Source: Acutalibacteraceae bacterium (lineage in GTDB: Bacteria > Bacillota > Clostridia > Oscillospirales > Acutalibacteraceae). From it: 64,000 nt of DNA. The notes beneath the pieces are model-generated. The model was not told the origin of the DNA. It made no database searches and saw only the letters and a list, made by a program, of their open reading frames with translations. Shown here piece by piece: positions 14,739 through 61,174 of this stretch (positions within the stretch are counted from its first letter, which is position 1; each line of letters begins with the position of its first letter). Location: contig JAZUNJ010000024.1 in NCBI GenBank assembly GCA_045604105.1, positions 44,956 through 108,955 on the forward strand, written 5' to 3'. A program made the translations under genes and the position numbers.

Positions 14739-15091
14739 TATTTTTCATCCTCCCATTTTTTCCATTCATCGGGGCAGTAGCCCACAGTTGCCTTTTTGCC
14801 GTTACGGACAATAGGTGTTTTAAAAAGCTCCTGATTTTCCAAAAGCTTTTCTTCTTTTGCATCCTCTGAGGCAAGATACTTTATAAATGATGAATCGTAT
14901 TTTTTGCTTTTCTCGTTCACAAGGTCATCAAGGGAGCACCTGAGAGCCGTTTTTATGGATTTGTATTCACCCTTGCTCATGCCGAATTTAACAAGGTCAA
15001 CAAACTGGAATTTTATGTTCCTTTCCTTGAAATAGCGTTGAGCCTTTTTTGTGTCAAAGCACTTTGTAGTGCCGTAAATCTGAATGTTCAT
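14738..15091 (-). CDS. ArsC-family (arsenate-reductase/YffB-like thioredoxin-fold) protein
   Basis: MNIQIYGTTKCFDTKKAQRYFKERNIKFQFVDL...LFKTPIVRNGKKATVGY. The ATG at 15091 is preceded by aaggagc. Its stop overlaps the DUF896 start (TAATG). Confidence 0.75.
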   Translation of the reverse strand: MNIQIYGTTKCFDTKKAQRYFKERNIKFQFVDLVKFGMSKGEYKSIKTALRCSLDDLVNEKSKKYDSSFIKYLASEDAKEEKLLENQELFKTPIVRNGKKATVGYCPDEWKKWEDEK

Positions 15092-15217
15092 TTTTAGCTC
15101 CTTAAATTTTTCTGTCACTATTTTAGAGTATAATCACAATTTTGTAAAGCCTTTTTTGTAATATTGAATTAATTTCAGCTGTGTGGTATAATGAAAACCA
15201 AATAAGAGGTGAATATT

Positions 15218-15841
15218 ATGGATGGAATTTGCTATATTATCGGAGCGGGAGATGTTTTTCCCACAGATCTGAGAGCGAAAAAAGAGGATTATATAATCTG
15301 CGCTGACGGCGGCTACATATATTCTGAGCTTCTTGGCAGAAAGGCAGACCTTGTTGTTGGGGATTTCGATTCCCTGGGCAGTATACCCGATTCTGACAAT
15401 AGAATTGTGGCTCCCTGCGAAAAGGATGAAACAGACATGACCCTTGCCGTTATGGAGGGCATGAAAAGGGGATACAGCAATTTTGTTCTGTTCGGTGCCC
15501 TTGGCGGCGAAAGGTTTGATCATACCGTTGCAAATATTCAGCTTCTTTCTTTTATATGCTCTAAGGGAGCACGTGGCACAATAATTCATTCAGACACTGT
15601 ACTCACTGCCTTTTCAAACGGTGAAATAACTCTTCCCGAAGCTCTTGAGGGATATGTTTCCGTTTTCTCTCTTTGGAACGAAAGCAGGGGAGTTACAATA
15701 GAGAATCTTAAATATAATGTAACCGATTATACTCTCAAAAGCAGTATGCCTTTAGGTGTCAGCAACGAATTCACAGGTAAAGAAAGCCGTATTTCCGTAA
15801 AAGACGGAGCTTTGCTTGTAATATATAACAGTAAGACATAA
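15218..15841 (+). CDS. thiN: Thiamine pyrophosphokinase
   Basis: ICADGGY...LVVGDFDSLGS...EKDETDMTLAV...GALGGERFDH are typical TPK motifs. The ATG at 15218 follows aagaggtg. Confidence 0.85.
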   Translation: MDGICYIIGAGDVFPTDLRAKKEDYIICADGGYIYSELLGRKADLVVGDFDSLGSIPDSDNRIVAPCEKDETDMTLAVMEGMKRGYSNFVLFGALGGERFDHTVANIQLLSFICSKGARGTIIHSDTVLTAFSNGEITLPEALEGYVSVFSLWNESRGVTIENLKYNVTDYTLKSSMPLGVSNEFTGKESRISVKDGALLVIYNSKT

Positions 15842-15860
15842 TTTAAAAGGACGAATAAAA

Positions 15861-16523
15861 GTGGAAAGAATCAAGAAACTGCTTTCATACATAACAAAAC
15901 TTAATAAAGAGGACAGAACAATTTTCTTTTTGCAGCTTTCAGCTTTGGGCAATATTATCATGGTAATTGTAAAGTTTACCGCATCCTTTATTCTGCCGTC
16001 ACTGTGGTTTTTTGTCAATGCATGGTTTGTGCTTATTATCACTGTTTCAAGAGCGGTCGCAATAAGGGACTACACAAGAAGCAAGGTGATAGAAAGCAAA
16101 GAAGAAAAACTGAAAACAGGCTTCCGCAATTACCGCAACAACGGAATTATTCTCATTTTTCTGGGTGTTGTTTATTTCTGTGTTAGCCTTTATATGCTGT
16201 TCAGAACATCAAGAATATCAATGCATGAATATATGACTTATCTTACAGCGCTTATTGCCTTCTGGTCAATCGGCTCGGCAATTTATGGGATTGTAAAATA
16301 TAAAAGAGATCACAGCCCCATAATCAAAGCGGTTAAAATCACCAACCTTGCCAATGCACTGACCTCCATTGTGCTCACACAGGTTGTGCTTCTGAACACA
16401 TTTTCCGGGGGAGCTGAAAATCTTAATATCGCTAACGGACTGGTCGGCATGGCTGTAAGCATTGTGATTTTTGCCTTAGGCGTTTATATGATAGTCGGAA
16501 TTGAAAAAATGAAAAGCAGATAG
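15861..16523 (+). CDS. Integral membrane protein, unknown function
   Basis: 220-aa ORF with about 5-6 hydrophobic helices. GTG start. I recognise no family. Confidence 0.45.
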   Translation: MERIKKLLSYITKLNKEDRTIFFLQLSALGNIIMVIVKFTASFILPSLWFFVNAWFVLIITVSRAVAIRDYTRSKVIESKEEKLKTGFRNYRNNGIILIFLGVVYFCVSLYMLFRTSRISMHEYMTYLTALIAFWSIGSAIYGIVKYKRDHSPIIKAVKITNLANALTSIVLTQVVLLNTFSGGAENLNIANGLVGMAVSIVIFALGVYMIVGIEKMKSR

Positions 16524-16547
16524 GATTTTTCCCATCTGCTTTTTTTA
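16513..16547. terminator. Bidirectional terminator (membrane protein gene / two-module paralog)
   Basis: aagcagatagg...cccatctgctt followed by ttttttt. Confidence 0.6.
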
Positions 16548-18719
16548 TTAAAGTAAGCCTGTGATTGTTGTAAGAACACTGCTGTCAATGCCGAGAACAT
16601 CGGAAAGTAGTGCTGTTATAATCTGAAGGTTTCCTTCCTGTCTTACAACCTGAACAAGGTAGGTGGCAAGACCCATGAAAACAACCTCTCTGTCGCCCTT
16701 AAGCTCCATTCTGTATCCGCCATAAACACCGCTTTCAACAGCTGTGGCAGTTGCCATTTTTGTGAAAACGCTGAAATCGTGCTGGGGAAGATTAAGACCG
16801 AGGCCTGAAACGATGTCATTAAGAAGACCGTTGATATCAGTAAGGTGAAGAGGACTTACTGCATTGCTGCCCATTGCTGCCGCAGCCTTGTTGTAGCCCG
16901 AAATAAGGTCGGGAAGAATTTCACAAAGGTAAGTGAGAGGAGCAGCCTTAACGGGCTCAAGGATTGTGAGAACCTTTGAGGTAATATCCTCCATTCTTTT
17001 TGCACCGTCAAGTCCCTGAGCTGAAACAAACTGCTCAAGTGTGGGCATGGGACCGGTATGAAGTGCTTCAAGCAAGGGAACAAGAGCCTCGTCATAGGAG
17101 TGAGGATCAACAAGAAGGCAAAGGGCAAGGGCATCACCGAAATGCTCTGCGCCTGCACCGCAGGCCTTGATGAACATATCCTTGTCACCTGCAGTAATTC
17201 CGAAGGGAATGGTTTCAACATCAGCCCATGTTTTGTTTTCGCTCTGAAGCGTTGCTATATAGCTGTAAGCTTCGGGGAAGCTCTTTTTAAGTGCGGCAAA
17301 GGAAATGTCTGCAAGCTCTTTTCCGCAAAGCTTTGCTGTAAGCTTTGAAACGGTGGTTGCAATGCCGTCAGTGAAAATAATTTCTTCAATGTTTGCACCT
17401 GCAAGTGCCTCAACAACAGTGGATTCAATGGAATCCATTACTGAAGTAACATTTTCTTCTGTTGCAGGCCACTTAAAAAGGTCTGAATAATCTTTGGGTT
17501 CTGCATTGTAGGCTTCAGTCTGTGCGTTGACGTCAACGCTTTCTCTCACTTCAAGCTTTGCAATGATGTCCATAAGTGCTGCAATCATGCTGTTAGCCTG
17601 GGGTGAAGTGAGCACTGAAGCAAAGGGACTTGTCTGAACTGCATCGGATTTCAGGTCCTTTGTGAGGATTTTTTCAACAACGGAATAGTTGTTTCCGTAA
17701 GTGAAAAGACCGGTGATGAAATCTGCAAGGTAAGCAAAAATAACCTCTCTGTCACCGTCAATCTGAACTCTCTTACCGCCTGTGGCAGCACTGTCAACAA
17801 CTGAAGCAGTGCCCATTTTTGAAAGCTGATCGTAATCAACCTGTGGGGCAGTCATGTGAAGAGCAGAAATAAGCTGCTGAATGATTGAATCAATGGTGGG
17901 CATGGTGAGCTTTGCATTCTGTGCAATTTTTTCGTTGCCGTTAATGAATTCACATGCCTTGTTATAGCTTATTATAAAATCGGGAAGAATACCGCAAAGA
18001 TATGTGAGTGGAGAGCTCTTTATGGGCTCAATGATGGCGAGTATTCTTTCAGCCATGAACTCAATTCTTTTTGAACGGCTTAAGCCTGTTTTGAGAACAA
18101 AGCCGAAAAGAGAAGGCATTTTTTCTGTGTGTGTTGATTCGAGTGCGGGAACAAGAGCATCGTAATATGATGAGGGAGCATCAAGAACAACCTGAAGAAG
18201 GCTGTCACCCATTGGAGCAGCACCTGCGCCGCAGGCCTTGATAAATGCATCCTTGTCACCTGCAGTAATTCCGAAGGGGATAGTGCCGATACCGTTCCAG
18301 GTAATGCCTGATGCCTTCTGAGCCTCAATATATTCGTAGGCTGCAGGGAATTCTTTTTTCAGCTCCTTGAATTTTATACTGTCAAGATTTTTTTGTGTAA
18401 GCTCTGCAGTGAATCTTGTAACAAGGGTTGCAACAGCATCGGAATAAAGCAGGGAGTCAATGTTAACCGTGGAAAGTATTCCCGCAAGCTTAGCGTCAAG
18501 GTCGTCAAGCTCGGCTGAAAGTGCATCTTCAGTAATGCCCGTTGTGAGAGAAGCATATGTAACCTTGCTTGCGTTGTAATCTGCCGCAACGGTTTCGCAG
18601 TCAATTTTTTCACCGGCAGTAACATTCAGAATGATGCCTATGCCTGAAGTGAAAAGAATTGCGATAACAAGAACTATGCTGACAGCAATGAGGAATTTTT
18701 TATTTTTGAGAATTTCCAT
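16548..18719 (-). CDS. Membrane-anchored two-module paralog of the giant repeat protein (723 aa)
   Basis: The ATG at 18719 follows agaaagaagg. An N-terminal TM anchor is present (FLIAVSIVLVIAILFTSGIGIILNV). Two ~357-aa copies each carry IPFGITAGDKD.FIKACGAGA...ALVP(A/L)LE(S/A)(T/L)HT..MP(S/T)L...LTYLC.ILPD(F/L)I. These resemble the GY..G..PLLEALGC / LPNLIYF core of 49293..59249. Confidence 0.7.
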   Translation of the reverse strand: MEILKNKKFLIAVSIVLVIAILFTSGIGIILNVTAGEKIDCETVAADYNASKVTYASLTTGITEDALSAELDDLDAKLAGILSTVNIDSLLYSDAVATLVTRFTAELTQKNLDSIKFKELKKEFPAAYEYIEAQKASGITWNGIGTIPFGITAGDKDAFIKACGAGAAPMGDSLLQVVLDAPSSYYDALVPALESTHTEKMPSLFGFVLKTGLSRSKRIEFMAERILAIIEPIKSSPLTYLCGILPDFIISYNKACEFINGNEKIAQNAKLTMPTIDSIIQQLISALHMTAPQVDYDQLSKMGTASVVDSAATGGKRVQIDGDREVIFAYLADFITGLFTYGNNYSVVEKILTKDLKSDAVQTSPFASVLTSPQANSMIAALMDIIAKLEVRESVDVNAQTEAYNAEPKDYSDLFKWPATEENVTSVMDSIESTVVEALAGANIEEIIFTDGIATTVSKLTAKLCGKELADISFAALKKSFPEAYSYIATLQSENKTWADVETIPFGITAGDKDMFIKACGAGAEHFGDALALCLLVDPHSYDEALVPLLEALHTGPMPTLEQFVSAQGLDGAKRMEDITSKVLTILEPVKAAPLTYLCEILPDLISGYNKAAAAMGSNAVSPLHLTDINGLLNDIVSGLGLNLPQHDFSVFTKMATATAVESGVYGGYRMELKGDREVVFMGLATYLVQVVRQEGNLQIITALLSDVLGIDSSVLTTITGLL
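16600..18650 (-). repeat. Internal duplication (2 x ~1071 bp) in the two-module paralog
   Basis: An identical 30-mer, atccttgtcacctgcagtaattccgaaggg, occurs at 17178-17207 and 18249-18278. The two copies are exactly 1071 bp (357 codons) apart. Flanking protein sequence is co-linear. Confidence 0.85.
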
Positions 18720-18980
18720 AAGAAAACCTTCTTTCTGTGAAACTTCTTGTATATGATGCAGATAATATAACATACAAATGTTAATTTTTTGTTTACAAAT
18801 GAAGTGAATTACTCTTTTGTTGCAACGTTTTTATGTAAAATGTTTAAAAATTAGCAAAACAAAGGGAAGTGATTAATGAAAAATACACACAGTTAACAAA
18901 TAGTTCATAATTATGAGACTTTTAAGTGATATTTGAGTGATATCATATATTTATTAAAAAATATTAAAAGGACTGATATT

Positions 18981-20645
18981 ATGAAGAAGATTATTTCTGT
19001 TGTTCTGGCATTGGTTATTGCTTTTTCGTGCACTGTGACAGCCTTTGCCGGTATTGATCAGAATGCAACAAAAAGTACTGTTCCTGTTATCCGAATTTCC
19101 GGCGACGGTGACGCTCTTTATAACAGTGAGGGCGAAAAAGTTATGCATTTCAGAGGACTTCTCGAAAACAATGAGGATGACGACGATGATGATAACAGCG
19201 GAATTTATGAATCCATTGCAAATGTTCTTCTGCCCTTCCTCATTGAAGGTGTAGTATTTGACCAGTGGGATAATTATTACAATAACCTTCAGAAGGAAAT
19301 CGGCGACCTTTTCGGTGATGCACTTCTTGACAAAAACGGTGACCCCGTTAACGGAACAGGTCTTCCCCAAAACAGACTTGACGAAATGGAATACAACAAA
19401 AAAACAGACAAGGGCGCAGACAGAGGCTATTATAGATACAATGACTATTGGTTCCGTTATGACTGGCGTCTGGATCCCCTTTACACAGCTGATTTGTTTG
19501 ATGATTATGTCAGGAGCATCAAGACTGCGACAGGTGCAGACAAGGTTGCAATCATTTCAACCTGCCTTGGCACAAATGTTGTAACTGCATATGTTGCAAA
19601 ATACGGTCTTGATGATATTCACGGTATTACCTTTGACGGCGGTGTTGCTTACGGTGCTGAAATTCTCAGTGAAACAATCAGTGGTAAGTTTCAGCTCGAC
19701 GGCAATGCAATAGAAAGAGTTCTCATTGACTGCGCTAACTATGATCTTTTTGATGTAGGTAGCTTTGTTCTTGCAACTGTTGATCTTCTTACGTCAAGTG
19801 GCGCACTTGACGCTGTTAAGGGTGTTACCAAGGAATATATCTATTATAAGGTAATTGAGGGCGTAACCTCAGCCCTTGCTCTTTCGACCTTCTTCACATG
19901 GCCTAACTATTGGGCAGCTGTTACTGCTGAGGATTATGAAACTGCAATTGAGTATGTTTTCGGCGAAGAGGGCAGTGAAAAGTATAATGAATACGCAGGT
20001 CTCATTGAAAAGCTTGATGCATACGATGAGCTTGTACGTCAGCACATCCCTGAGATTATGCAGAGCATCAAGGATGCAGAGGTAAATCTCGGTATCATGG
20101 CAAAGTACGGCAGCCAGATGATTCCCGTGTGTGAGTCGTCAGACATGATTTCAGACCAGATTGCGTCTGTTCACAGAGCTTCCTACGGTGCAACAACCTC
20201 AACTGTTTATGAGCCTCTGCCCGAGGATTATATTGCCAGCAGGATTGAGGAGGGCTTCGGAAAATACATTTCACCCGATAAGCAGATTGATGCTTCCACC
20301 TGCATGTTCCCTGATTACACTTGGTTCTATAAGGGCGCAACTCACTCAAACTGGACAAGCTATGAAATGAAGATTATGTATGATGTTGCAACAGCAGACA
20401 GACAGCTCACCGTTGACGATTTTGAGTGGGGACAGTTTATTGTTTATGATAATGACACTGACACCGCTTATAAAATGGATGAGAACAACTGCCACACAGA
20501 AGCCTGGGAGGCTGACAAGGAGCAGGACGCTCCCAATACTCCCTATGCAAAGCTTTTCGTCTTCATCAAATCAGTTATTAACTGGTTCAGGGAGCTGTTC
20601 AGAATCCTTTCAGATAAGTTCGCAGCAAAGGAACCCACAGTATAA
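18981..20645 (+). CDS. Secreted LCAT-like alpha/beta-hydrolase-fold protein with C-terminal amphipathic tail
   Basis: Signal peptide MKKIISVVLALVIAFSCTVTAFAG. FRYDWRLDP...KVAIISTCLGTNVVTAYV aligns to the LCAT/PDAT family YDWRL and nucleophile-elbow region (from memory). The C-terminus is KLFVFIKSVINWFRELFRIL. Confidence 0.6.
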   Translation: MKKIISVVLALVIAFSCTVTAFAGIDQNATKSTVPVIRISGDGDALYNSEGEKVMHFRGLLENNEDDDDDDNSGIYESIANVLLPFLIEGVVFDQWDNYYNNLQKEIGDLFGDALLDKNGDPVNGTGLPQNRLDEMEYNKKTDKGADRGYYRYNDYWFRYDWRLDPLYTADLFDDYVRSIKTATGADKVAIISTCLGTNVVTAYVAKYGLDDIHGITFDGGVAYGAEILSETISGKFQLDGNAIERVLIDCANYDLFDVGSFVLATVDLLTSSGALDAVKGVTKEYIYYKVIEGVTSALALSTFFTWPNYWAAVTAEDYETAIEYVFGEEGSEKYNEYAGLIEKLDAYDELVRQHIPEIMQSIKDAEVNLGIMAKYGSQMIPVCESSDMISDQIASVHRASYGATTSTVYEPLPEDYIASRIEEGFGKYISPDKQIDASTCMFPDYTWFYKGATHSNWTSYEMKIMYDVATADRQLTVDDFEWGQFIVYDNDTDTAYKMDENNCHTEAWEADKEQDAPNTPYAKLFVFIKSVINWFRELFRILSDKFAAKEPTV

Positions 20646-20656
20646 AATAAAGAATT

Positions 20657-20689
20657 GAAGCCCTGCAGGAATCAATCCTGCAGGGCTTC
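20657..20689. terminator. Strong hairpin terminator downstream of gpmI (and of the LCAT-like gene)
   Basis: gaagccctgcagga-atcaa-tcctgcagggcttc. 14-bp stem. A T-rich tract follows on the minus strand. Confidence 0.75.
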
Positions 20690-20734
20690 AATGTGTAATC
20701 ATCGGGTAGCTTTTACCCGATATAACAATGTATA

Positions 20735-49292: not shown

Positions 49293-52200
49293 TCAGTTGA
49301 AAAGGTTTTTAAACCATTCAATGATCTTGTTGAACCATTCAATAATTCTCTGGAAGAAGGCGATGAGACCGTTAGGTGCAATACCTTCAGATGTGAGAAT
49401 ATCTTCAAAGTTCGTATCAAGGAACTGAGCAAGGAGATTACCGATAGTCTGCTCATTGGGATCGTCTGACATGCCGAGATCCTTGAGAATCTGCTGCCAC
49501 TGAGCATTGATATCCTTGAGGCCGCCGGCTGTTTCGCCAACACCGAGGTCTGCTCCGTAGAACAGATAGTAAAGTGTTGCGAGAGCCTTGTCCATGCCAA
49601 GGTATGTTTCTGTTGCGCATGTAGCAATTGTATCAAGAACACCTCTTACATACTTTTCGGCATCAGCAGTCATACCAAGATGATCTCTGAGGAGGCCGAG
49701 AAGTATTTCCTGATTATTTTCATGCATGATGAATGTAACAATCAGTCTCATTACAACTGTAACCATTTCAGTCTTTGCTTCTTCAGACTGATAAATCATT
49801 CTGTAAGCGGTCTTTCCGTTAGCTGATTCATAGGATACAAGAGTACCGATGGTAAGCTCGGAAACAGCGCTTGCATTGAGATTTTCAAATCTGTAGCCTG
49901 TTGCATCTGCAATCATGTCAAGAAGCATTTCGAAGAGCTTCTCGAATGTAAGAGTTGAAAGATCAAGGCCGATGATTTCGTAAAGGTCAATCTTAGCAAT
50001 GGGTTCAATTGCATCAAGAAGAGCGTAAACTGCATTGAGTGTATTCTTAACAACTGTGTCAACACCGTTTGAATTGATGAAGTAGATAAGGTTGGGAAGC
50101 ATTGAGAGAATCTCTTCAGCAGGATCAACCATAATTTCGTCTACTCTGTCAAGAAGGGGATTGAGAATTGAAGTAAGAAGTACATCACCGTTTGCCTCAA
50201 CAGCTGCATAGTAATCAGCAGGAGTCATAACGTTGTCGCATTCAAGAGTTTCAAGAAGAGGAATGATACCGTAAGCATAGCCTTCAGCACCTTCAAGCTT
50301 GATTGCGTCAACAGGACCGTTTGCACCTTCCTTGGCAAGAAGAGCGATATCTTCGTCAGCAAGTACCCACTTAAGAACGCCGTAGAGAGGTTCAAGAACA
50401 TCGCAAAGGCTTGCAACGAACTGAGCTCTGTCGTCTGTGAATTCGGGAACTTCAACCTTGGCAACTGCTGCGATATCTGCAATGCCGGCTGTCTTAAGAA
50501 CTGCGGCAATGTGCTTGCCAACGTTCTTGCCCTTAGCTTCAAGGTTAACAATTCCGTCAAGAACACCTGCGAGGGCGTCACGGATAGCAATTACGTTCTT
50601 GCTGTTGTAAAGTCCGCCGTTAATAAGCTCATCAATAAGCTCATTGAGGTTATCAATGCTTACACCGTTAATGTTGATACCGAGAAGGTAAATGATGTTG
50701 TTGATAAAATCACCAACATTGTCAGCAATGTACTGAGCCATTTCTTCAGTGTAAAGAGGACCGTATTTGTGGTTTGTGAGATAAAGCTTTGAGGATTCAA
50801 TTGCTGAGAATGCATAGCCTGTGTCTGCCTTATCAACAAACTTCCAATCGAATTCCTGAATGTCTGCAGGAACAACACCCTTATTGAAGATGTAATCGAT
50901 TACCTTATAAGCGTCTTCACCAACAAGGTCTTCAACGAAGTCTTTGTTTGCTGAATCTGCAAGGGTAAGAACGATGAGGTTAGCAAGAACTGTTACCATG
51001 TCGTACTTATCGAATTCATCAACATAAGTCATCTTCTTAGCAACGCTGATGCTTACTGAATCATATTCGTTAACCTGGCCGAGACCGAAGCCCACAAGAA
51101 CATTTTCAAGCTTTGTAAGGTCAAGACCTGTCATAAGTGAAACTGCCTGAAGGATATCCTTCATTGCAAGGTGGTCAAGGTCGATTGTTGCGCCCTTGCC
51201 CTCAATGTTCATAAGCTTCTGAAGGTTTACAAGCTCGTTGATGTCAACGTTCACACCTAATGCTTCAAGCTTTGTGAGAAGAACTGTGATAGCAGCAAGT
51301 GTGTTGTCAACCACTGCAGCAACACCGTTGGTGTTGAGGAAGTAGAGAAGGTTGGGAAGAAGTGCGATAACTTCTTCTACAGGATTTTCAAGAATTTCAT
51401 CAATGCGTGCTGCAAGAGAATTGAGAACGCCTGAAACGATTTCTTCTGTTGTTGTTTCAGCGCCGTAAACAGTGGGAAGGTTTTCACAGCCGAGTGCTTC
51501 AAGAAGAAGTGCAAGTCCTTCTGCATAACCCTGAGCACCGTTAATCACGATGAAGTCTACGGGAAGGTCGTTATCGTCAACATCCTTAACAAAGAATCTG
51601 TAATCGTTACCAAGAAGGAACCATTCAACAAGACCCTTAGCATAGGTGTTAAGAACATTTGCAAGCTCTGAAGCGAATGCGTCAACAGTTGTAATTCCTT
51701 CGGGAGCCTTGTAAGCCTTAAGACCCACAACATCAGCACCGAGAAGAACTCCTGCTGCGTCAAGAAGACCGTTGTCGATATCCTTAAGAAGATTTGCAAG
51801 AAGATCAACGACAGCCTGAAGGTTTTCGCTTGTGAATACGTTAACCTTGTCATTGAGAAGTGCGCTGAGTGAATCGTAGTTGCTGTCGATGAGAGAAGCA
51901 ACGAGGTCAGCAAGCTCAGGAAGGTTATCTGTCACATACTGTGCTGTTGCTTCGTTCCAGTTGTTGGGATAAGTAATAGCATACTTCATAGCATCAACTG
52001 TACCGTTGTCAGCAAGGGGATAGTCCCAATCGGGAACTGTATAGATGATTTCTACGTCTGCGAAAACATCCTTGAGAGCTGAGATGATTTCAGTGCCGAT
52101 CATTTCGTCAAGCTTTGCAGCGTTTTCTTCATCTTCAACTGCAACAAGAAGAGCAGCTGTCACAAGAACGGTAATCATATCGTGCTTGTCAAATTCGTCT

Positions 52201-55200
52201 GCATATTCCATCTTAGCAGTATAATCGAAGCTGCTTACTGAATCGTATGCAGTAACCTTACCAAGAGCAAAGCCTGTGAGTACATCCTTAAGAACTGTGA
52301 GATTAAGACCTGTAATTTCTGAAACGAGTTCAAGGATTGCTTCAATTGTAAGGTTGTCAAGGCCGATTGCGAGATCCTTTTCGATACCGCAGAGTTCTTC
52401 AATGTTAACAAGATCATCAAGAGTAATGTTAAGACCGAATGCCTTGAGCTTGAGAGCAAGGGCGTTGAATGCGCCTGCAAGGTTATTTACGGAAGCTGCA
52501 ACGCCGTTAGCGTTGAGGAAGTAAATAAGGTTGGGAAGAATGTCGAGAGCTCTTTCAACGGGAGAATTGAAGATTTCACCGATTCTTGCAGCAACTGACT
52601 TGAGAACTGCAACAACTACGTCTTCAGTCTTGAGGTTTTCAACACCGTAAACCTCGGGAAGGTTCTGACAGCCGAGAGCCTCAAGAAGGGGAGCAAGACC
52701 TTCAGCATAACCCTGAGCACCGTTGATTGTGATGATATCTGTGCCTTCAAGCTTTGTGCCCTTAGCGTCAACATCGTTAACGAAGAGCTTGATATCGTCG
52801 CCGAGAAGGAGCCATTCAACAACGCCCTTAGCATAGGTGTTAAGAACATTAGCAAGCTCAAGTGCGAATTCTTCAACAGTGTCAATTCCTTCGGGAGCCT
52901 TGTAAGCCTTGAGACCAACAAGATCAACCTTGAGAAGAACGCCGAGACTGAGAAGCTTATCGTCAACATTGCCAAGAAGCTTTGTGATAAGACCAACAAG
53001 GTCATCAAGAGTCTTTGAGGTGAATACGTCAACCTCTGACTTAAGAAGAGCTGCAAGTGAATCGTGGTCGCTTACCATGCCAACAACGATATCAACAAGA
53101 GCGGGAAGGTTGTCAGCAAGATACTGTGCCTTTTCTTCTGTCCAGTCGTTGGGATATGTGATTGCACTTTCAATTACTTCGATTGTACCTTCGTCATAGT
53201 TGATTTCACCGTTGAAGTAGTTGTAGTTGGGTTTAATATATTCAACGGGAGTGCTCTCGAATACTTCGTCAAGTGCTGAGATGATGTCAGTACCGATTGC
53301 CTTGTCAAGAGCTGCTGCGTTAGCTTCATCCTGAACAAAGATAAGAGCGATTGTAAGGATAATTGTAACAACGTCAGATTTTGCTGCGTCCATTCTGTAA
53401 ATGTAGTTGCCCTTTGTAATCTTACCTGTGCAGAAGTTTACAAGGTAATCTTCAACAACTGCAAAGTTGAATTCGGGAAGAACTGCTTCAAGAATTTCAA
53501 CAACATCAGCAAGTGAAAGCTCTTCAAGGTTAAGAACAAATTCAGTACCGTCTGCCTTCTTGAACTTGATAAGATCTGAAAGGCTTACGTTGAGACCGAA
53601 TGCCTGAAGCTTTGTAAGAAGAGCATTTACGGGAGCAAGAAGATTGCCGATTGCAACACCTGCGCCGTTTGCATTAAGGAAGTAGATAAGGTTGGGAAGA
53701 AGCTCAACAACTTCATCAACGGGCTTTTCAAGAATTTCGTCAACTCTTGCTGCAAGAGCACCGAGAACATTAGCAGTTGTTGCTTTTTCTGCGGTGGGAG
53801 CATCTGCACCGAGAGCTTCGAGAATGAGTGCAAGACCCTTTTCGTAGCCGTAGCCGCCGTTGATAACAATTGTATCGTTAAGGTCTGTCTTCTTAGCGAA
53901 TCTGTAGTCATCGCCGAAGAAGAGCCAGTTGATAAGACCGCCTGCATAGGTGTCAAGAACATTTGCAAGCTCTGCTGCGAATGCTTCTGTGAGTGTCTTA
54001 TCCTCGGTTGCAACGATTTCAGGTGCCTTATATGCCTTGAGACCGTTGATGTCAACATCAAGAAGTCTGCCGGCAGCTTCAATGAGGTTTGCATCAATAT
54101 CTTCAAGAAGACCTGTGATGAGACCAACAAGCTGATTGAGTGAATCAGCGGTAAGATAGCCGTTGAGAAGGTCTGAAAGAAGAGCTGAAACTGTTGCGGG
54201 AGCATCTGCCTTATCCTTATTGATAAGACCGATTACAAGGTCAGCAAGCTCGGGAAGGTTATCAGCGATATACTGTGCCTTTTCCTCAGTCCAGTCGTTG
54301 GGATACTCAAGTGCATAAAGAGTGTTGGGAAGGCCTGCGCCTGTTGCGATGTAAGCGTCAAGTGCTTCCTGTGAATCGAACCAGTAGTACCAGTTGGGTT
54401 CTGCATAATCAAATTCGCCAAGGTCAGCGAATACGCCTTCAAGCTTACTGATAATGTCAGTGCCGATAAGCTTGTCGAGTGCTGCAGCATTATTCGGCTT
54501 TGCACCCCATTCGAGAACGTATGAAAGAATTACTGTAAGAAGGTCATGTGCTTCGAAGTCATTATGGAATGCGCCCTTCTTCCATGTGCTGTTGAGAGTT
54601 GAAGCTGAATCATATTCAACACCGATGTGCTTACATACATCGTATACAAGTGTGCCGAGGAAATCGATATCAAGACCGAGAAGCTTATAAAGAAGGTCAA
54701 CAACAAAGTTGATATCAAGATGCTTAAGATCAATGTTAAGACCTGTGCTTTCAGTTGCAGTTTTAATCATTTCTGCAAGGTTGATATCGAAGAGAGGACG
54801 GATTGTGTCAAGCACTGCATAAACAGGAGTGAGGAGCTTGTCAACACCCTGTGAAAGTCCGTCGCTTGCGAGATAGTAGATAACACCGGGAATGCTGTCA
54901 AGCATATCCTTGATAGTGCTGTTGTACTTATTATTTGTGAGCCTTGCAAGTCTTGTAATAAGAGCATCAACAAGCTTTGCAAGTGCATCTTCATTTTCAC
55001 CAAGGGCAGTTACATTGTCACAGCCGAGAGCTTCAAGAAGGGGAACAATTGCATTGTCATAGCCCTTATAGCCCTGAAGTGTGATTGCACTGTCGATGAG
55101 AGTGAGATCCTTACCTGCAAAAATGAAGTCGATTGCAGGTCTGAAGGGAGCGAGAAGCTGAACAAGCTTTGCACCGAATGCTGCACCGTTGCCGTCTTCA

Positions 55201-58200
55201 AAGCCCCAGTTGTAATCGTCTGCAAGGTCCTTATACTGTGCAAACACTGCAAGGTCAATACCAAGCTCATCTTTAAGCAGAGCATTGATGTCGAATGCGG
55301 GAGCCTCGGCTTCGCCACCTTCTTCTGCAGTTTCAGTGTCACCTGCAAGAAGAGCGTTCAGGTCGAGACCTGCAAGGAGCTTTGCAAGAGCTGTGAGATT
55401 TGCATTTGAGTAAAGAGCATTGATTTTGCTTGCAAGCTCATCTTCAATGTCAAATGTTGATTCTGCATCTATGGTTTTGATGATGCCGCTTACAATAGCA
55501 TCAAGGTTGTCATAAAGGTATTCAGCCTTACCTTCTGTCCAGTCATTGTCATAGCTGAGATAGATTTCATCAGCAGGAGTCAGAGGTGTCTGAGTACCCT
55601 TTGAGCCGTCATACCAATAATATCCGCCAACGGGGTATTCGGTCTGGTTTGCAAGCTCAACAATTGCAGCAATTACATCGCCGACATCCATTTCGTCAAG
55701 ATTGAGATCTTCATAGATAACCTTCTTGAGACCGGCAATTGCTTCCTCGTCGGGAATTGTCTTGCCGTTGGCGTCTTTGATAGCTACACCGTTTTCATCC
55801 TTCTGAGTCATGAACAGACCAAGGAGGCTTGTAAGTGCTGCTTCATCCTTAACTGCGTTAAGAATGTATGAAAGAAGGTAATAGCCTACGCCTGCCTTGT
55901 CAGCAACGATTGTGTAAGCTTCACCTGCGTTAACGCCGGAATAGATAGCTGCTTTTCTTCCGGTTGAAACCTTTGTGAGTTTACCGAGAGTTGCAAGAGT
56001 TGTCTGGTCGATTGCGGGAAGCTCAAGACCGAAGTTTGAAAGCAGTGAGTTAATACCGCCTGCAAACATGCTTTCGGGAAGAAGAGCACCTTCGTCACTT
56101 GTGATAAGAATATCACCAAGGAAGATATCAACGCCGTCACTGACAACTGTTACAGCACCGCCGCCGATAACACCGGCCTTGTACCATACCTTTGTTGTAA
56201 GGTTGTTAAGAAGAGGCTTAACCATACCGAATGCAAGAGCATAAACAAGGTTGGGAAGAATTCCGAGAATTGTGTCAACGGGCTTTTCACCGAGAGTTTC
56301 AAGGAATGTGAAAATAGGCTTGAGAATTTCTTTAAGAACATAAGCAATGTCATCGTTGCCTTCAATTGATGCCACCGGGGTGTAAGGAACACCGAGAAGC
56401 TCATAAATGGGAACAAGAGTGTTAGCATAACCGGGGTTACCGTATGCACCAAGATCAAGTGTTACGTTAAGAACAAGTGCATGAGCAAACTGAAGAATAC
56501 TGTCGGGTTCCCAGTTAATGTTTGTGATAAGAGCTGTCAGAAGAGGCTTGATACCTTCTGCTGCATCAGCAAATACTTCATAGAACTTAGCTTCTCTTTC
56601 TTCAAGATCTTCAATTTCATCAATACCCCAGACGAACTTGAGTTTGCCTGTTTCTGTGTCAAGAATGTGAACTGATGTCCATGAATCGTCATAACCACCT
56701 GCTGCCTTAAGCATAGCAACTGTTTCGGGATATTTTGTTTCATCAAGAACACCTGCGAGAAGGTCAGGATAAAGCTCAAGACCTGTTTCTTTACATACAG
56801 TGTAGAAGTCCTTATTGTATGTAACCTTCATACCTGATGCTTCAGAGGGAAGGTTTGAGAAAGCCTTTGTGAACTCATTGAGAACAAGAGGATAAAGCAG
56901 CTGAATAAATGTGTTGATGAAGTCATCCTTAAACAGGAAGCCCTTTACAGTGTCTGAAAGCAAGGCACCGATGTCAAGAGCGCTTCCGTCTTCGTTGATA
57001 AGTGAGCCGACAAGGTCACTTGTGATGATAGTGTCAAGGTCATTTACAAGGTTAAGAAGATTCTGCTCTGTAACTTCGTAAGCATCCTTTCTGACTTCAT
57101 CATTGGGATAAACGTCACGGTCTTCATAATCGATAACTGTCTGCTCATAATCAGCAAAACCGAAGGTTGTAGCATATCTGCAGTACTCATAATAAATTTC
57201 ATCAAAGTATGCATTATATGTGTTCATTGTGTCTGCGCTGATATATGAACCCTTACCTTCATTGTTGAGGTAATCCTGGATACCGTCGCTCTTACCCTTA
57301 TTGTTGGTTGCATCATCATCATAGTTTTCTGCATGATAAAGCTTATCCCAACCGTCTTCGAGGGGAACAACAACAGCTTTAAGCTTGAGATATGACATCA
57401 TGTCAAGAGTAGTGGGTCTTTCAAGCTCGTTGTAAACAGCATCAACAGCATTTACCTGAGCTGTGAAACGGTCTGCAAGAAGTCTGTAAAGACCGTCGAG
57501 CATGTTGTCAGCATCAGTTCTGATCTGACCGAGAAGAAGATCTCTTCTGGCGTAAGTGAGTGTGTTATAGAACTCGTCAAGGCCTAATTTCTGTTCCTTG
57601 ACTTCCTGAATCTTTGCATAAACATCTTCTGTTTTGAGGCCAACAAAAGACTTGTGAGCATTTTCTGCAAAGTAAAGAACATACTCATTGATTTCGCACT
57701 TCAGTTCTTCCTGAAGGTCAAGAAGATATACATAGCCTTCACTGTAAACAGCATTGATTACCTGAAGCTCGCCGCCTCTTGCATTTGAACGGTATGTACC
57801 GATTGCGTTGATGTAACCTGAAATTTCTGAATAGAGGCTCTGCTGTTCAACTGTTTCATAGTCCTTGTAAGTATCCTTGTAAGTATTATAGAAGTTGTCT
57901 GCAGCATTTCTGCTGTCGTTAAGGTAGTATACCTGATAGTTATCTGTGAAGTTGTAGAGATAGTTCATATCGATATCGCCGTTGTTAACGAAATAGTCGA
58001 GAACTGTACCACCTGCTACAAGTGCATCGTAGTAGCCCATGAAGGTAAGGTAATCAGCTTCCATCTTTGCATGTGTGGCTGAACCCTTTTCACCAAAAGC
58101 ACCCCAGTTATTTGCACCGCCGCCTTCACCCCAGCTGAATACACCGTATGAGGGGTTAGCTGCTATAAAATTCTTATAGTTTTCAACTATGGGAAGGAAT

Positions 58201-59249
58201 TCCTGCATATCTTTTGCAGACTGAATTGAAGCCTTCTGTGTTGCAACTGCTGTTGCAAATGAACCGAAGAGCTTGCTATAGGTTGAAGCGCCGCCGACAT
58301 AAGTCTGTGTGCTTGCAACAGCTGCATCAAAATCTGAAAGGAAGGTGTCGATTGTGCCGTTATTTACCTTTGCAAGAAGATCATCAAAGCTTACTGATGT
58401 GAAAGCATTGATAGCTGCTGCATGAGCATCAACGGTTGTTTTTGCTGCTGTGTTTGAATTCTGATTATAAGCGGGTGCTGAGGGAGGAGTCTGCACATAG
58501 TTGTGGAAACGCCAATAGGTTGTCAGACCGGATTTCGAAGTATAATAGCCTCTGGTCATTGCAAAAACATATTTAACACCGAGATCAATTGTTGATTCAA
58601 CATTTGTGTATGCACCGATTGAATCAAGATAGCCCTTGTATGCTTCATCCTTGGCTTTGATAATGAGTGTGTTAGTGTGGTTTGCGGGAGTTGTTGAAGA
58701 AGAGGGATTACTTAAAAGGGGCTTCCTCTTTTCCTCATAGTCGTCGTGCTGTCTTGCCTTTGAGTCGTCAAGAACAAGCTTGAGGAAGTACACTACAGGC
58801 TCAGTCATTGTACAACCGTATTTGGGAAGCTTTTTCTCAAATTCAGTGTACATATGCGTTGCACTTGTGCATGTTCTTGTTGCTGCGTCACCTGAACCGG
58901 TCTTTCCGATTTCTTCAGAAGCCATAATTGCTTCATGGAAGAGAGCAACAAGATTTTTAAGTGTTGCGTACTGATGGTATGTGTTAACTGTGAGTGTTGT
59001 TGTGTTAACAATGTTATTGGTGCTGCCGGCACTACCTGTTGCAGCGGTGTTGCCGTAAGAACCAAAATCTTTGTTATACACCTGCGCAAGAACATCTGAG
59101 CTGTTCTTGAGTGCATTGGCGAAAGTTTCAAACTTTGTGTCATCCGCCGCTGCGGCTGTAAAGCTGATAGTGCCAAAGCAAACGCTCATGCTTGACATAA
59201 TCATAATTACAGCAAGCAGAACGCTTAAAAGTTTTTTGGTAACTTTCAT
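49293..59249 (-). CDS. Giant secreted repeat protein (3318 aa), six ~400-aa modules, unknown function
   Basis: RBS ggagga and signal peptide (MKVTKKLLSVLLAVIMIMSSMSVCFGTISFTAAAA). The reading frame is uninterrupted. Repeated cores are YPNDWTEEKAQY(I/L)ADNLP, GLKAYKAPE, ING(A/G)xGYxxGLxxLLEALGC and LLPNLIYFLNANG. The C-terminal tail is IAFFQRIIEWFNKIIEWFKNLFN. A strong terminator lies downstream. Confidence 0.85.
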   Translation of the reverse strand: MKVTKKLLSVLLAVIMIMSSMSVCFGTISFTAAAADDTKFETFANALKNSSDVLAQVYNKDFGSYGNTAATGSAGSTNNIVNTTTLTVNTYHQYATLKNLVALFHEAIMASEEIGKTGSGDAATRTCTSATHMYTEFEKKLPKYGCTMTEPVVYFLKLVLDDSKARQHDDYEEKRKPLLSNPSSSTTPANHTNTLIIKAKDEAYKGYLDSIGAYTNVESTIDLGVKYVFAMTRGYYTSKSGLTTYWRFHNYVQTPPSAPAYNQNSNTAAKTTVDAHAAAINAFTSVSFDDLLAKVNNGTIDTFLSDFDAAVASTQTYVGGASTYSKLFGSFATAVATQKASIQSAKDMQEFLPIVENYKNFIAANPSYGVFSWGEGGGANNWGAFGEKGSATHAKMEADYLTFMGYYDALVAGGTVLDYFVNNGDIDMNYLYNFTDNYQVYYLNDSRNAADNFYNTYKDTYKDYETVEQQSLYSEISGYINAIGTYRSNARGGELQVINAVYSEGYVYLLDLQEELKCEINEYVLYFAENAHKSFVGLKTEDVYAKIQEVKEQKLGLDEFYNTLTYARRDLLLGQIRTDADNMLDGLYRLLADRFTAQVNAVDAVYNELERPTTLDMMSYLKLKAVVVPLEDGWDKLYHAENYDDDATNNKGKSDGIQDYLNNEGKGSYISADTMNTYNAYFDEIYYEYCRYATTFGFADYEQTVIDYEDRDVYPNDEVRKDAYEVTEQNLLNLVNDLDTIITSDLVGSLINEDGSALDIGALLSDTVKGFLFKDDFINTFIQLLYPLVLNEFTKAFSNLPSEASGMKVTYNKDFYTVCKETGLELYPDLLAGVLDETKYPETVAMLKAAGGYDDSWTSVHILDTETGKLKFVWGIDEIEDLEEREAKFYEVFADAAEGIKPLLTALITNINWEPDSILQFAHALVLNVTLDLGAYGNPGYANTLVPIYELLGVPYTPVASIEGNDDIAYVLKEILKPIFTFLETLGEKPVDTILGILPNLVYALAFGMVKPLLNNLTTKVWYKAGVIGGGAVTVVSDGVDIFLGDILITSDEGALLPESMFAGGINSLLSNFGLELPAIDQTTLATLGKLTKVSTGRKAAIYSGVNAGEAYTIVADKAGVGYYLLSYILNAVKDEAALTSLLGLFMTQKDENGVAIKDANGKTIPDEEAIAGLKKVIYEDLNLDEMDVGDVIAAIVELANQTEYPVGGYYWYDGSKGTQTPLTPADEIYLSYDNDWTEGKAEYLYDNLDAIVSGIIKTIDAESTFDIEDELASKINALYSNANLTALAKLLAGLDLNALLAGDTETAEEGGEAEAPAFDINALLKDELGIDLAVFAQYKDLADDYNWGFEDGNGAAFGAKLVQLLAPFRPAIDFIFAGKDLTLIDSAITLQGYKGYDNAIVPLLEALGCDNVTALGENEDALAKLVDALITRLARLTNNKYNSTIKDMLDSIPGVIYYLASDGLSQGVDKLLTPVYAVLDTIRPLFDINLAEMIKTATESTGLNIDLKHLDINFVVDLLYKLLGLDIDFLGTLVYDVCKHIGVEYDSASTLNSTWKKGAFHNDFEAHDLLTVILSYVLEWGAKPNNAAALDKLIGTDIISKLEGVFADLGEFDYAEPNWYYWFDSQEALDAYIATGAGLPNTLYALEYPNDWTEEKAQYIADNLPELADLVIGLINKDKADAPATVSALLSDLLNGYLTADSLNQLVGLITGLLEDIDANLIEAAGRLLDVDINGLKAYKAPEIVATEDKTLTEAFAAELANVLDTYAGGLINWLFFGDDYRFAKKTDLNDTIVINGGYGYEKGLALILEALGADAPTAEKATTANVLGALAARVDEILEKPVDEVVELLPNLIYFLNANGAGVAIGNLLAPVNALLTKLQAFGLNVSLSDLIKFKKADGTEFVLNLEELSLADVVEILEAVLPEFNFAVVEDYLVNFCTGKITKGNYIYRMDAAKSDVVTIILTIALIFVQDEANAAALDKAIGTDIISALDEVFESTPVEYIKPNYNYFNGEINYDEGTIEVIESAITYPNDWTEEKAQYLADNLPALVDIVVGMVSDHDSLAALLKSEVDVFTSKTLDDLVGLITKLLGNVDDKLLSLGVLLKVDLVGLKAYKAPEGIDTVEEFALELANVLNTYAKGVVEWLLLGDDIKLFVNDVDAKGTKLEGTDIITINGAQGYAEGLAPLLEALGCQNLPEVYGVENLKTEDVVVAVLKSVAARIGEIFNSPVERALDILPNLIYFLNANGVAASVNNLAGAFNALALKLKAFGLNITLDDLVNIEELCGIEKDLAIGLDNLTIEAILELVSEITGLNLTVLKDVLTGFALGKVTAYDSVSSFDYTAKMEYADEFDKHDMITVLVTAALLVAVEDEENAAKLDEMIGTEIISALKDVFADVEIIYTVPDWDYPLADNGTVDAMKYAITYPNNWNEATAQYVTDNLPELADLVASLIDSNYDSLSALLNDKVNVFTSENLQAVVDLLANLLKDIDNGLLDAAGVLLGADVVGLKAYKAPEGITTVDAFASELANVLNTYAKGLVEWFLLGNDYRFFVKDVDDNDLPVDFIVINGAQGYAEGLALLLEALGCENLPTVYGAETTTEEIVSGVLNSLAARIDEILENPVEEVIALLPNLLYFLNTNGVAAVVDNTLAAITVLLTKLEALGVNVDINELVNLQKLMNIEGKGATIDLDHLAMKDILQAVSLMTGLDLTKLENVLVGFGLGQVNEYDSVSISVAKKMTYVDEFDKYDMVTVLANLIVLTLADSANKDFVEDLVGEDAYKVIDYIFNKGVVPADIQEFDWKFVDKADTGYAFSAIESSKLYLTNHKYGPLYTEEMAQYIADNVGDFINNIIYLLGININGVSIDNLNELIDELINGGLYNSKNVIAIRDALAGVLDGIVNLEAKGKNVGKHIAAVLKTAGIADIAAVAKVEVPEFTDDRAQFVASLCDVLEPLYGVLKWVLADEDIALLAKEGANGPVDAIKLEGAEGYAYGIIPLLETLECDNVMTPADYYAAVEANGDVLLTSILNPLLDRVDEIMVDPAEEILSMLPNLIYFINSNGVDTVVKNTLNAVYALLDAIEPIAKIDLYEIIGLDLSTLTFEKLFEMLLDMIADATGYRFENLNASAVSELTIGTLVSYESANGKTAYRMIYQSEEAKTEMVTVVMRLIVTFIMHENNQEILLGLLRDHLGMTADAEKYVRGVLDTIATCATETYLGMDKALATLYYLFYGADLGVGETAGGLKDINAQWQQILKDLGMSDDPNEQTIGNLLAQFLDTNFEDILTSEGIAPNGLIAFFQRIIEWFNKIIEWFKNLFN
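49600..57000 (-). repeat. Six tandem ~1.16-1.37 kb coding modules inside the giant gene
   Basis: LPN(L)(I/V)Y-encoding segments recur at about 50085, 51350, 52525, 53685, 54885 and 56255. (Y)PNDWTE-type segments recur at about 50760, 51960, 53150, 54295 and 55545. Outer boundaries are approximate. Confidence 0.8.
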
Positions 59250-59728: not shown

Positions 59729-61174
59729 ATGAAGTCTGTTATGAAGAAAACACTTGCACTGCTTCTTGCACTGGTTCTCAGCTTCAGCGTAACAACTGTT
59801 GCTCTTGGTGCACTTGGTACGGGCGGTGTTATGAAAAGCTACTCGGCAACCTCAATTGAGGATTTCCATGCCGAAGAATTTGAGGGGAGAATAGGAAGAA
59901 TAATCTTCCTCAACCTTTCTGAAGAAGATTTCCCTGATAATGTTACATATGTTGCTGAAATGGACCTTTCCGCAAGTGAGGACACAGGTACCGTAACAGC
60001 AAAGCTTGTTCTTAGCCAGAACATTGCAGGCATTAATAACCTTGATATGTATATCGGTGCCTATGACGGTGTAATTGCCCCTGCAGACTGCTCCTATCTT
60101 TTTGCAGAAACAGGCGTCAGAGAGGTTATTGGCCTTGAAAATTTTGACACCTCAGGTGTAACAAGCATGAAGGCTATGTTCAAAAACTGCGGACTTCGTG
60201 AGTTCAATCTTGATGATTTCGGCGATACCTCCAATGTAAGAGACATGTCCTTTATGTTCAACGATTGCTGGTATCTTGAAAAAATCACAGCCCAAAGCTT
60301 TGATACTTCATCCGTTTCACACTTTGAGCATATGTTTGCAGGCTGTTCAGCTCTTACTGAATTCAAGGTGAAAAACCTTGACCTTTCATCTGCATCTGAC
60401 CTTAATTACATGTTCTATGAATGTGTTCTTCTCACTGAGGCTGACCTCAGCACATGGAAAAACACGTCAGGCATGGTAAGCGTAAATGCTTTCAGAAACT
60501 GTCCTGCACTCGAAACCGTAAAGCTCAGCAACTGGGATCTTTCATCACTTGTAACCCTTGACGGCATTTTTGCTGCCTGTGCTGCTCTTACTGATGTGTA
60601 TCTTTGCGGTGTTACTCAGCCGACCGGCTTTTCATCATCATGGGATAATCCTCTCAAGGGTACAGACGGAATTAATGTGCACACAGATGATATCGATTTC
60701 ACCTCAACACCTCTTTGGAAGGACTGCTTTGGTAAGGGTATTGACGTGAATGTTGTTTATGAGCTCAATGATACTGCTGATATGGTAAATATTGACTTCG
60801 AAAGAAACGAAGCAGTTGAGTATTACACTGTAACAGTAAACGGCGATGTGAGAACCATCTATGGCGGCTCATCGATGAACATCAGAAAAGGTACCGAAAT
60901 TGCAATTGATATCAAAGCTTCAGAAGAAGCAAATCCCATGTCACTGAATGTGAACGGCGGTATATTCGATTTCGGCACATCCTTCACTGTTGAATGTGAC
61001 ACCACCGTTTCAATTCAGACCTACCACGACACAACACCCATCGTGCCCGACAAGGCAGAGCAGACTCTCACCGGTGCAATTTTTGCAATCAGAGATTTCA
61101 TAAACAGAATCATCGATATTCTTCAGGGCTTCTTCGGAAGATTCATGCCCTGGATACCGGAAGTTGAAGAATAA
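59729..61174 (+). CDS. Secreted BspA-family/DUF285-type leucine-rich-repeat surface protein with C-terminal amphipathic tail
   Basis: RBS gggagg and signal peptide. DUF285-like repeats are present (FDTSGVTSMKAMFKNC; GDTSNVRDMSFMFNDC; FDTSSVSHFEHMFAGC; LSSASDLNYMFYEC). The C-terminus is AIFAIRDFINRIIDILQGFFGRF. Confidence 0.75.
   Translation: MKSVMKKTLALLLALVLSFSVTTVALGALGTGGVMKSYSATSIEDFHAEEFEGRIGRIIFLNLSEEDFPDNVTYVAEMDLSASEDTGTVTAKLVLSQNIAGINNLDMYIGAYDGVIAPADCSYLFAETGVREVIGLENFDTSGVTSMKAMFKNCGLREFNLDDFGDTSNVRDMSFMFNDCWYLEKITAQSFDTSSVSHFEHMFAGCSALTEFKVKNLDLSSASDLNYMFYECVLLTEADLSTWKNTSGMVSVNAFRNCPALETVKLSNWDLSSLVTLDGIFAACAALTDVYLCGVTQPTGFSSSWDNPLKGTDGINVHTDDIDFTSTPLWKDCFGKGIDVNVVYELNDTADMVNIDFERNEAVEYYTVTVNGDVRTIYGGSSMNIRKGTEIAIDIKASEEANPMSLNVNGGIFDFGTSFTVECDTTVSIQTYHDTTPIVPDKAEQTLTGAIFAIRDFINRIIDILQGFFGRFMPWIPEVEE

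Follow-up and report, generated by a model that had tools for sequence, protein, structure and literature searches.

We analysed a window of 64,000 nucleotides from an Acutalibacteraceae bacterium (contig JAZUNJ010000024.1), in which two minus-strand genes, here called A and B, each stand beside a divergent plus-strand gene for a secreted protein, PA and PB respectively. By their sequences and predicted structure, A and B represent, in two different architectures, one undescribed extracytoplasmic all-alpha repeat family of gut Clostridia (Acutalibacteraceae/Oscillospirales and relatives), with a module of 330-400 amino acids (aa). The overall picture that we favour, with modest confidence, is a membrane-displayed helical-repeat family in which an aromatic C-terminal tail would serve as anchor, A and the hydrolase PA would be a conserved pair, and the adjacency of B with the DUF285 protein PB would be accidental. 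The four open reading frames (ORFs) lie where a preliminary description of the window had placed them, and Table 1 collects the coordinates of these genes and of the other features discussed.

Repeats were masked in self-BLAST and were resolved with fragment BLAST and hidden Markov models (HMMs). The two halves of A share 40% identity across 325 aa (E 6.5e-84), and B contains six modules of about 400 aa after an N-terminal region of about 770 aa, as found by fragment BLAST and an HMM from the window repeats. The preliminary description had counted two modules in the 723-aa protein and six in the giant, which agrees with our result, and a motif search recovered its quoted module motifs verbatim in A and B. 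When the whole proteins were compared with BLASTP, the match between A and B was marginal (E 2e-4). In the profile-profile comparison by hhalign, the two A modules against the six B modules gave a probability of 92%, and 158 A-family modules against 249 B-family modules gave 97.4% in a local alignment (E 1e-11, 173 columns in the C-terminal half) and 98.9% in a global one (E 3e-16, 298 columns). The HMM of the B module also scored 45-64 bits on A-family proteins. Given this profile-profile similarity, the proteins are paralogous at the module level, and the homology proposed earlier for the modules of the two loci is borne out: judged by their sequence profiles, the A and B modules are remote homologues. 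The core common to both is G-Y-x-x-[AG]-L-[VA]-P-L-L-E-A-L ... P-[LV]-x-x-[LI]-x-x-[IL]-L-P-[ND]-[LF]-I; a beta-hairpin and the terminal helices come after it. Within the alignment of the eight window modules a Y, an E and a P are invariant, and the A-type modules have invariant E, H, R and D residues.

The structure of A was modelled with AlphaFold2 (AF2) from a 65-sequence alignment, with a predicted local distance difference test (pLDDT) score of 89.3 and a predicted template modelling (pTM) score of 0.83. In the model each module is all-alpha with one beta-hairpin. Foldseek with this model found no match in the PDB (best E 0.12, TM-score at most 0.13) or in BFVD (best E 0.2), a sequence profile search of the PDB with the module family also gave no match (best E 0.62), and nothing in the A and B proteins rose above threshold in Pfam or NCBIfam. 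The start of A was taken at the second Met, because its database orthologues start there, which gives 723 aa. The hydrophobic segment close to this N-terminus is a helix with low pLDDT in the model, and it is probable that it holds the protein at the membrane as a signal-anchor.

The family extends far beyond the window. The A-type proteins, which fall into about 80 clusters at 90% identity, have 718-805 aa and always two modules (one 503-aa A-type match covers just 68% of the query), and the A orthologues are 40-100% identical. The B-type giants form 44 clusters with 4-8 modules each. When the eight window modules were used in an exhaustive profile search, 611 representative clusters (50% identity) were retrieved at E<=1e-3, with 340 of them at E<=1e-30, and the proteins of this wider family range from 430 to 7691 aa with up to 21 matched stretches. 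All named members are called 'hypothetical protein' and come from Clostridia or Eubacterium metagenome-assembled genomes. Literature searches on giant proteins in Acutalibacteraceae and on C-terminal amphipathic helices in Oscillospiraceae found nothing relevant.

The second component of the picture is the C-terminal tail. The helical hydrophobic moment of the last 40 residues was evaluated for every window ORF of at least 150 aa, and the top three values were those of PA (0.78), B (0.72) and PB (0.64); the next ORF reached 0.57 and has few aromatics. The preliminary description had assigned the same kind of tail to the two plus-strand partners. Their moments are indeed among the highest, but giant B has the tail too, and the PB tail is not matched by the giant-tail HMM. 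Since B itself ends in the tail, the tail cannot tell a 'partner' from a 'scaffold'. The same HMM matches the tails of PA-family proteins exactly at their C-termini (E 3e-5 to 0.1 in 1045 sequences), and beyond giants and PA-type hydrolases it has one match, in the N-terminal segment of an esterase. At the level of sequence the tail is thus related between giants and hydrolases, while in PB the similarity is merely one of physical chemistry.

The tail persists throughout the B family and in the bulk of the wider one, nearly every complete member having it. A strict screen was passed by 90 of the 141 newly retrieved top representatives, and most of the others have a weaker version of the tail or are fragments. 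In the giants an APNG motif precedes the helix. A tail of this type was present in all inspected PA-family members (30 of 120 listed homologues, from more than 1675 clusters). Some distant giants (P0330, P0340, P0367, P0368, P0371, P0373, P0376 and P0379) end, in place of the tail, in a hydrophobic transmembrane helix and a KKKK stop-transfer sequence, a classical transmembrane anchor. As the tail is interchangeable with a transmembrane anchor, it is best read as a membrane anchor, and most likely it is a general one on giants, hydrolases and PB.

The tail could instead be a docking element. The modules would then be receptors for aromatic tails, with A holding the tail-bearing proteins, B as the primary scaffold docked on A, and PA and PB as cargo. 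The variation of module number from 2 to 21, the recurrence of a single tail type on secreted proteins, enzymes among them, that are otherwise unrelated, the combination of modules and tail in the giant, and a tail-bearing hydrolase as the preferred neighbour of A are what such a system would look like. Nevertheless we consider docking very unlikely, because the exchange of the tail for a plain transmembrane anchor in distant giants fits anchoring, tail-bearing hydrolases far outnumber module proteins, and the conserved neighbour of B-type giants is an Lgt-like gene, with a tail-bearing neighbour in none of nine loci (see below); moreover, the PB tail is without sequence similarity. We give hardly any credence to an all-alpha display system of the cohesin-dockerin kind, in which A would hold the tails of B and of the enzyme and the giants would present arrays of Cys-hydrolases and leucine-rich repeat (LRR) adhesins.

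Two further observations concern tails. Tandem pairs of PA-family hydrolases lie near the A locus in L015 (15581-19124), L026 (14038-17590) and L029 (6229-9592), and their tails end in ...KLFxGELDFSFGK, which echoes the ...NLFSFGK ending of some giant tails. A 307-aa Abhydrolase_3/BD-FAE esterase is encoded directly 3' of a giant (L038 16066-16989) and directly 3' of an A orthologue (L004 8247-9170); the N-terminus of the L038 copy, MWEKIVAFFMSIIAFFASLFG, is the segment that scores 24 bits against the giant-tail HMM. As a second partner this esterase was rejected: the two copies share 25% identity over 119 aa, no other locus has the gene, and at so low an identity their shared placement is probably a coincidence.

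For the pairing of A with the hydrolase, a genome scan gave 31 species-level A loci, of which 28 had enough upstream sequence to be informative, and these were tabulated by tblastn. The slot iPGM - [hydrolase] - A - thiamine pyrophosphokinase (TPK) - ArsC is conserved, and A, the single-copy form, lies between iPGM and TPK in most species. In 15 of the 28 species the A orthologue has a PA-family gene within 500 bp on its upstream side; in 2 more such a gene lies within 4 kb only, and in 11 the flanks contain none. Where it is adjacent, it is divergent in 7 species (73-84% identical to PA) and co-directional in 8 (27-31% identical in seven, 51% in one). Four hydrolase subfamilies occur in the A loci; the adjacent genes come from two of them, in L015 and L026 a third is represented 2-5 kb downstream, and the three nearest subfamilies all bear the Cys described below. 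The adjacency of A and PA has therefore outlasted inversion or replacement by another paralogue, and we regard the pairing as probably functional, though facultative and confounded by shared ancestry within one bacterial family. As a side observation, A evolves much faster than its neighbours when the window (16548-18719) is compared with L027 and L001; between L027 and the window, the identity is 42% for the A orthologue, 73% for the adjacent hydrolase and 92% for iPGM.

These counts also bear on the possibility that there is no functional unit at all, the adjacency of A and hydrolase being inherited synteny in a housekeeping region and both divergent layouts being chance. The fixed position of A between iPGM and TPK, the species in which the hydrolase is missing, the restriction of the B/PB layout to the window and the absence of obvious likeness between the two spacers all agree with this. 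It is harder to reconcile with a slot filled by two hydrolase subfamilies of such different identity to PA on opposite strands, with the clustering of the third subfamily downstream, or with the giant loci, six of which, about 140 kb in total, contained no PA gene by tblastn. Hitch-hiking alone would not be expected to re-create or retain the adjacency repeatedly through rearrangements, and we consider this explanation unlikely.

The hydrolase itself departs from the known lipases at its nucleophile. The AF2 model of PA (pLDDT 82.5) has an alpha/beta core, in which Cys195 lies between the strand of residues 189-194 and the helix of residues 197-208 and corresponds in the alignment to the Ser of lipase 6nkc (AHSMG). 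The whole PA clade has a Cys at the nucleophile elbow, xxC[LM]G[GT], while a distant sister subfamily keeps Ser (AVSHGG); the loci listed for the Ser/Cys comparison are L011 18333-20303 and L032 6256-8205. These alignments point to a replacement of Ser by Cys throughout this family of secreted alpha/beta hydrolases. From its model, PA is probably a secreted, tail-anchored alpha/beta hydrolase with a Cys-His-Asp triad. A thiol in this role hints at an acyl-enzyme that is stable and, possibly, at chemistry of the transferase kind.

The preliminary description had called PA a secreted LCAT-like hydrolase. Its signal-peptide-like N-terminus, a feature also of PB, and its assignment to the alpha/beta hydrolases stand, but the LCAT part finds no support beyond the YDWRL motif, which is invariant in the PA family and lies upstream of the nucleophile strand. 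Pfam LCAT (PF02450) did not match the window PA at E<=0.1 and matched 2 of 49 family members with a best E of 0.042, whereas Abhydrolase_1 matched 47 of the 49, the window PA falling just under its cut-off (25.4 against 25.8 bits). Foldseek with the PA model returned only generic alpha/beta hydrolases at weak E values of 5e-3 to 3e-2. With LCAT essentially unmatched, the Ser elbow replaced by Cys195 and generic structural matches, the identification of PA as LCAT was rejected.

The best of these Foldseek matches is the type VI secretion phospholipase Tle4 (E 5e-3), which has been solved with its immunity protein. A membrane-anchored steric chaperone for the hydrolase, akin to the Lif foldases that serve Pseudomonas and Burkholderia lipases, or an immunity protein against a Tle-like lipase toxin, would be other roles for A, and its N-terminal anchor and all-alpha extracytoplasmic body beside a secreted lipase-like alpha/beta hydrolase would suit them. 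We find such roles quite improbable: A resembles neither Lif nor Tli proteins in sequence or fold, it is a single-copy syntenic gene that stands without PA in some 40% of the species, the Tle4 match is weak (TM-score 0.22), and the giant paralogues fit neither role. The toxin-immunity version in particular was judged weak on the Tle4 score and on the syntenic, single-copy nature of A.

The situation at the B locus is different. PB is, as described before, a secreted DUF285 LRR protein; it matches PF03382 (DUF285) with 77.2 bits (cut-off 25, E 1e-21) and TIGR02167 with 47.1 bits (cut-off 30), besides PARCEL repeats and LRR_5 in Pfam/NCBIfam. Nine related giant loci were looked up, with gene families taken from Pfam tables, and neither a DUF285 gene nor a tail-bearing divergent neighbour was found in any of the nine. 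A tblastn search with PB on L001-L041 gave no homologue outside the window, no DUF285 was present among the Pfam-annotated genes of L047-L049, and a metagenome scan with PB gave no close relative, only DUF285 proteins at 27-33% identity on unrelated contigs. A conserved pairing of B with DUF285 was rejected on these results. Because the DUF285 neighbour is confined to this genome, the 'same divergent layout' of the two loci is a coincidence. Of the divergent layout noted in the preliminary description, the hydrolase beside A therefore stands in 15 of 28 species but in mixed orientation, and its functional unit of scaffold plus cargo keeps some support at locus A only, as a gene pair and not as a layout, with none at locus B.

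The giants have another neighbour. In 7 of the 9 loci, despite unrelated wider contexts, a gene of the Lgt family (PF01790) lies 120-190 bp upstream of the giant and co-directional with it (Table 1); in L047 there are two in tandem, and in L041 a second, divergent Lgt gene stands beside the first together with a second giant in tandem. The window B and its closest homologue (66% identity, L040) are without an Lgt-like neighbour. Against NCBIfam lgt equivalog models with cut-offs of 119-334 bits, the Lgt-like proteins score no more than 25-64 bits and are for this reason taken as divergent, possibly dedicated, paralogues. The signal peptide of B (window 59166-59249) belongs to a set that is unusually conserved among the giants, KKLLSVLLAVIMIMSSMSVCFGT, with a near-conserved Cys (P0081-P0124, P0245-P0385). 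The residues up to this Cys are MSVC in the window B, which departs from the canonical lipobox [LVI][ASTVI][GAS]C, and FSAC or ITSC elsewhere; the Cys is absent in a few members. One possibility is that this Cys belongs to an atypical lipobox on which the adjacent Lgt-like paralogue acts. We also note that the two module-repeat giants in tandem in L041 have 3668 aa (1-4702) and 3516 aa (7001-17551), with the two Lgt-like genes between them.

Taken together, the picture that we favour is as follows. A would be the short form, with two modules held at the membrane by its N-terminal signal-anchor, and B the giant form, with a cleavable signal peptide, the N-terminal region of about 770 aa, six modules and the C-terminal aromatic amphipathic helix. 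This helix would lie as an in-plane membrane anchor on the outer leaflet, and the giants, the PA-family hydrolases of about 550 aa and, in this genome, the DUF285 protein would use it independently. If the tail anchors B, PA and PB and the signal-anchor holds A, all four proteins would be exposed on the external side of the cytoplasmic membrane, with N-terminal lipidation perhaps serving as an additional anchor in the B-type giants. A and PA would act together at the membrane surface: PA may form a thioester acyl-enzyme on a lipid or another acylated substrate of the envelope, and A may be its non-catalytic partner, which holds, positions or regulates enzyme or substrate; a chaperone role was also considered. 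The giants would be long membrane-tethered helical arrays, their proposed conserved neighbour being the sequence-divergent Lgt-like transferase, and the B-DUF285 adjacency would be a local accident.

Several points weigh against this picture. The N-terminus of A could be a cleaved signal peptide (VTA|GE) and not an anchor. In the 11 of 28 species without a flanking PA gene, A can function without an adjacent hydrolase. Since much of the adjacency is synteny inherited within a single bacterial family, the 15 loci cannot count as independent, and with more than 1675 clusters in the PA family against about 80 for A, most PA enzymes work without A. The link between A and PA is drawn from gene neighbourhood, and the anchor role of the tail from two observations, its amphipathicity and its replacement by a transmembrane anchor.

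The window reveals an unannotated family, to which some of the largest proteins encoded by uncultured gut Clostridia belong, with a confidently predicted module that has no known fold. Its aromatic C-terminal tail is a sequence-conserved putative anchor common to the giants and to hundreds of secreted enzymes. The tail, the Ser-to-Cys hydrolase beside A and the Lgt-like gene beside the giants suggest an undescribed layer of cell-envelope organisation in Oscillospirales, an order in which little is known of how proteins are anchored at the surface. Should the tail prove to be an anchor or sorting signal of general use, prediction of the surface proteome of these abundant gut bacteria would improve.

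Table 1. Coordinates of the features at the A and B loci (positions in the window) and of the Lgt-like genes in related giant loci (positions in the locus named).
Feature	Position	Strand	Description
Gene A	16548..18719	-	723 aa, two modules; ORF open up to 18773
A N-terminal hydrophobic segment	18621..18698	-	about aa 8-33; sequence FLIAVSIVLVIAILFTSGIGIIL; probable signal-anchor transmembrane helix
A module 1	17619..18620	-	40% identity to module 2; all-alpha with one beta-hairpin (model)
A module 2	16551..17549	-	contains ALVPLLEALHTGPMPTL and LTYLCEILPDLI
Terminator-like hairpin directly 3' of gene A	16512..16543	-	14-bp stem and T-run
A/PA divergent spacer	18720..18980	.	260 bp, AT-rich; promoter-like hexamers on + strand
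Gene PA	18981..20645	+	554-aa secreted alpha/beta hydrolase, putative Cys nucleophile, C-terminal amphipathic helix; 18981 is the likely start
Cys195 codon	19563..19565	+	nucleophile elbow STCLG; invariant in 49/49 members
His455 codon	20343..20345	+	invariant; after strand 447-451 (model); probable catalytic His
PA tail	20541..20624	+	aa 521-548; amphipathic helix; helical in model
Hairpin between convergent PA and iPGM	20654..20692	.	17 bp; minus-strand terminator score; palindromic stem
Gene B	49293..59249	-	3318-aa giant, signal peptide, six modules, C-terminal tail
B module 1	55734..56927	-	aa 775-1172
B module 2	54384..55610	-	aa 1214-1622; contains AIVPLLEALGCDNVTAL
B module 3	53217..54359	-	aa 1631-2011; contains LLPNLIYFL
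B module 4	52020..53204	-	aa 2016-2410
B module 5	50844..52013	-	aa 2413-2802
B module 6	49602..50816	-	aa 2812-3216
B tail	49296..49385	-	APNGLIAFFQRIIEWFNKIIEWFKNLFN; tail HMM 66 bits
Gene PB	59729..61174	+	secreted DUF285/PARCEL LRR protein, amphipathic C-terminus; adjoins B in this window only
Lgt-like genes by giants	L036 5983-6819; L037 6008-6844; L038 6054-6878	same as giant	PF01790
Lgt-like genes by giants	L041 6071-6922 (+4761-5672); L047 3101-3967 and 3969-4856		PF01790
Lgt-like genes by giants	L048 3961-4848; L049 3977-4807	same as giant	PF01790

Strong hairpin terminators end both A and PA. The B/PB spacer has about 480 bp and gave no match to Rfam, and a regulatory element common to both divergent spacers was rejected, as nothing similar was seen on inspection. 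A cluster of short GC hairpins, three or four in number and all with a T-run behind them (CTGCTGAAAAGCTTCAGCGG-TTTTT, ACCGGAGTAGCTGGT-TTTTT and others), lies on the plus strand of the B/PB spacer (59303-59400), with no plus-strand gene upstream to terminate. Their role may be to insulate the divergent genes, or they may be part of the 5' leader of B.

Several known systems can be compared with the two loci. The DD-carboxypeptidases PBP5 and PBP6 of E. coli are exported enzymes anchored by a C-terminal amphipathic helix. The likeness lies in a signal peptide and a C-terminal amphipathic helix of about 20-25 residues on an otherwise soluble exported protein, the moments here being 0.64-0.78. The tail described here differs in being unusually rich in Phe and Trp, in its sequence conservation across giants and hydrolases, in the APNG of the giants and in its occurrence in Clostridia, and its membrane binding is predicted. 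The cohesin-dockerin system of Ruminococcaceae and Clostridia resembles ours in the variable number of modules, in having a cell-anchored form and a form with both modules and tail, and in the C-terminal tag on enzymes. However, the modules here are all-alpha and of 330-400 aa instead of beta-sandwiches, the tail is a single amphipathic helix and not a Ca-binding dockerin, and no Pfam Cohesin or Dockerin match was found in the window proteins of both loci.

For A and PA, the Lif/lipase pair offers a membrane-anchored all-helical protein encoded beside a secreted lipase-like alpha/beta hydrolase, but A has two large modules, its pairing is facultative (15/28), and a Cys occupies the nucleophile position of the enzyme; Lif (PF03280, 2ES4-type) gave no Pfam match for A and was not among its Foldseek matches. 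With LCAT and the class-2 lipases PA shares the alpha/beta fold, YDWRL upstream of the nucleophile strand and an elbow aligned with that of 6nkc, and it differs in the invariant Cys for Ser, the unmatched Pfam LCAT, a large helical insertion and the C-terminal helix, a predicted anchor. Polyhydroxyalkanoate synthases and dienelactone hydrolases, which are alpha/beta enzymes with a Cys nucleophile, resemble PA by analogy only. Finally, PB is like the BspA-like DUF285/PARCEL LRR proteins in its DUF285, PARCEL and LRR_5 matches, but it ends in an amphipathic helix in place of their usual lipoprotein or wall anchor.

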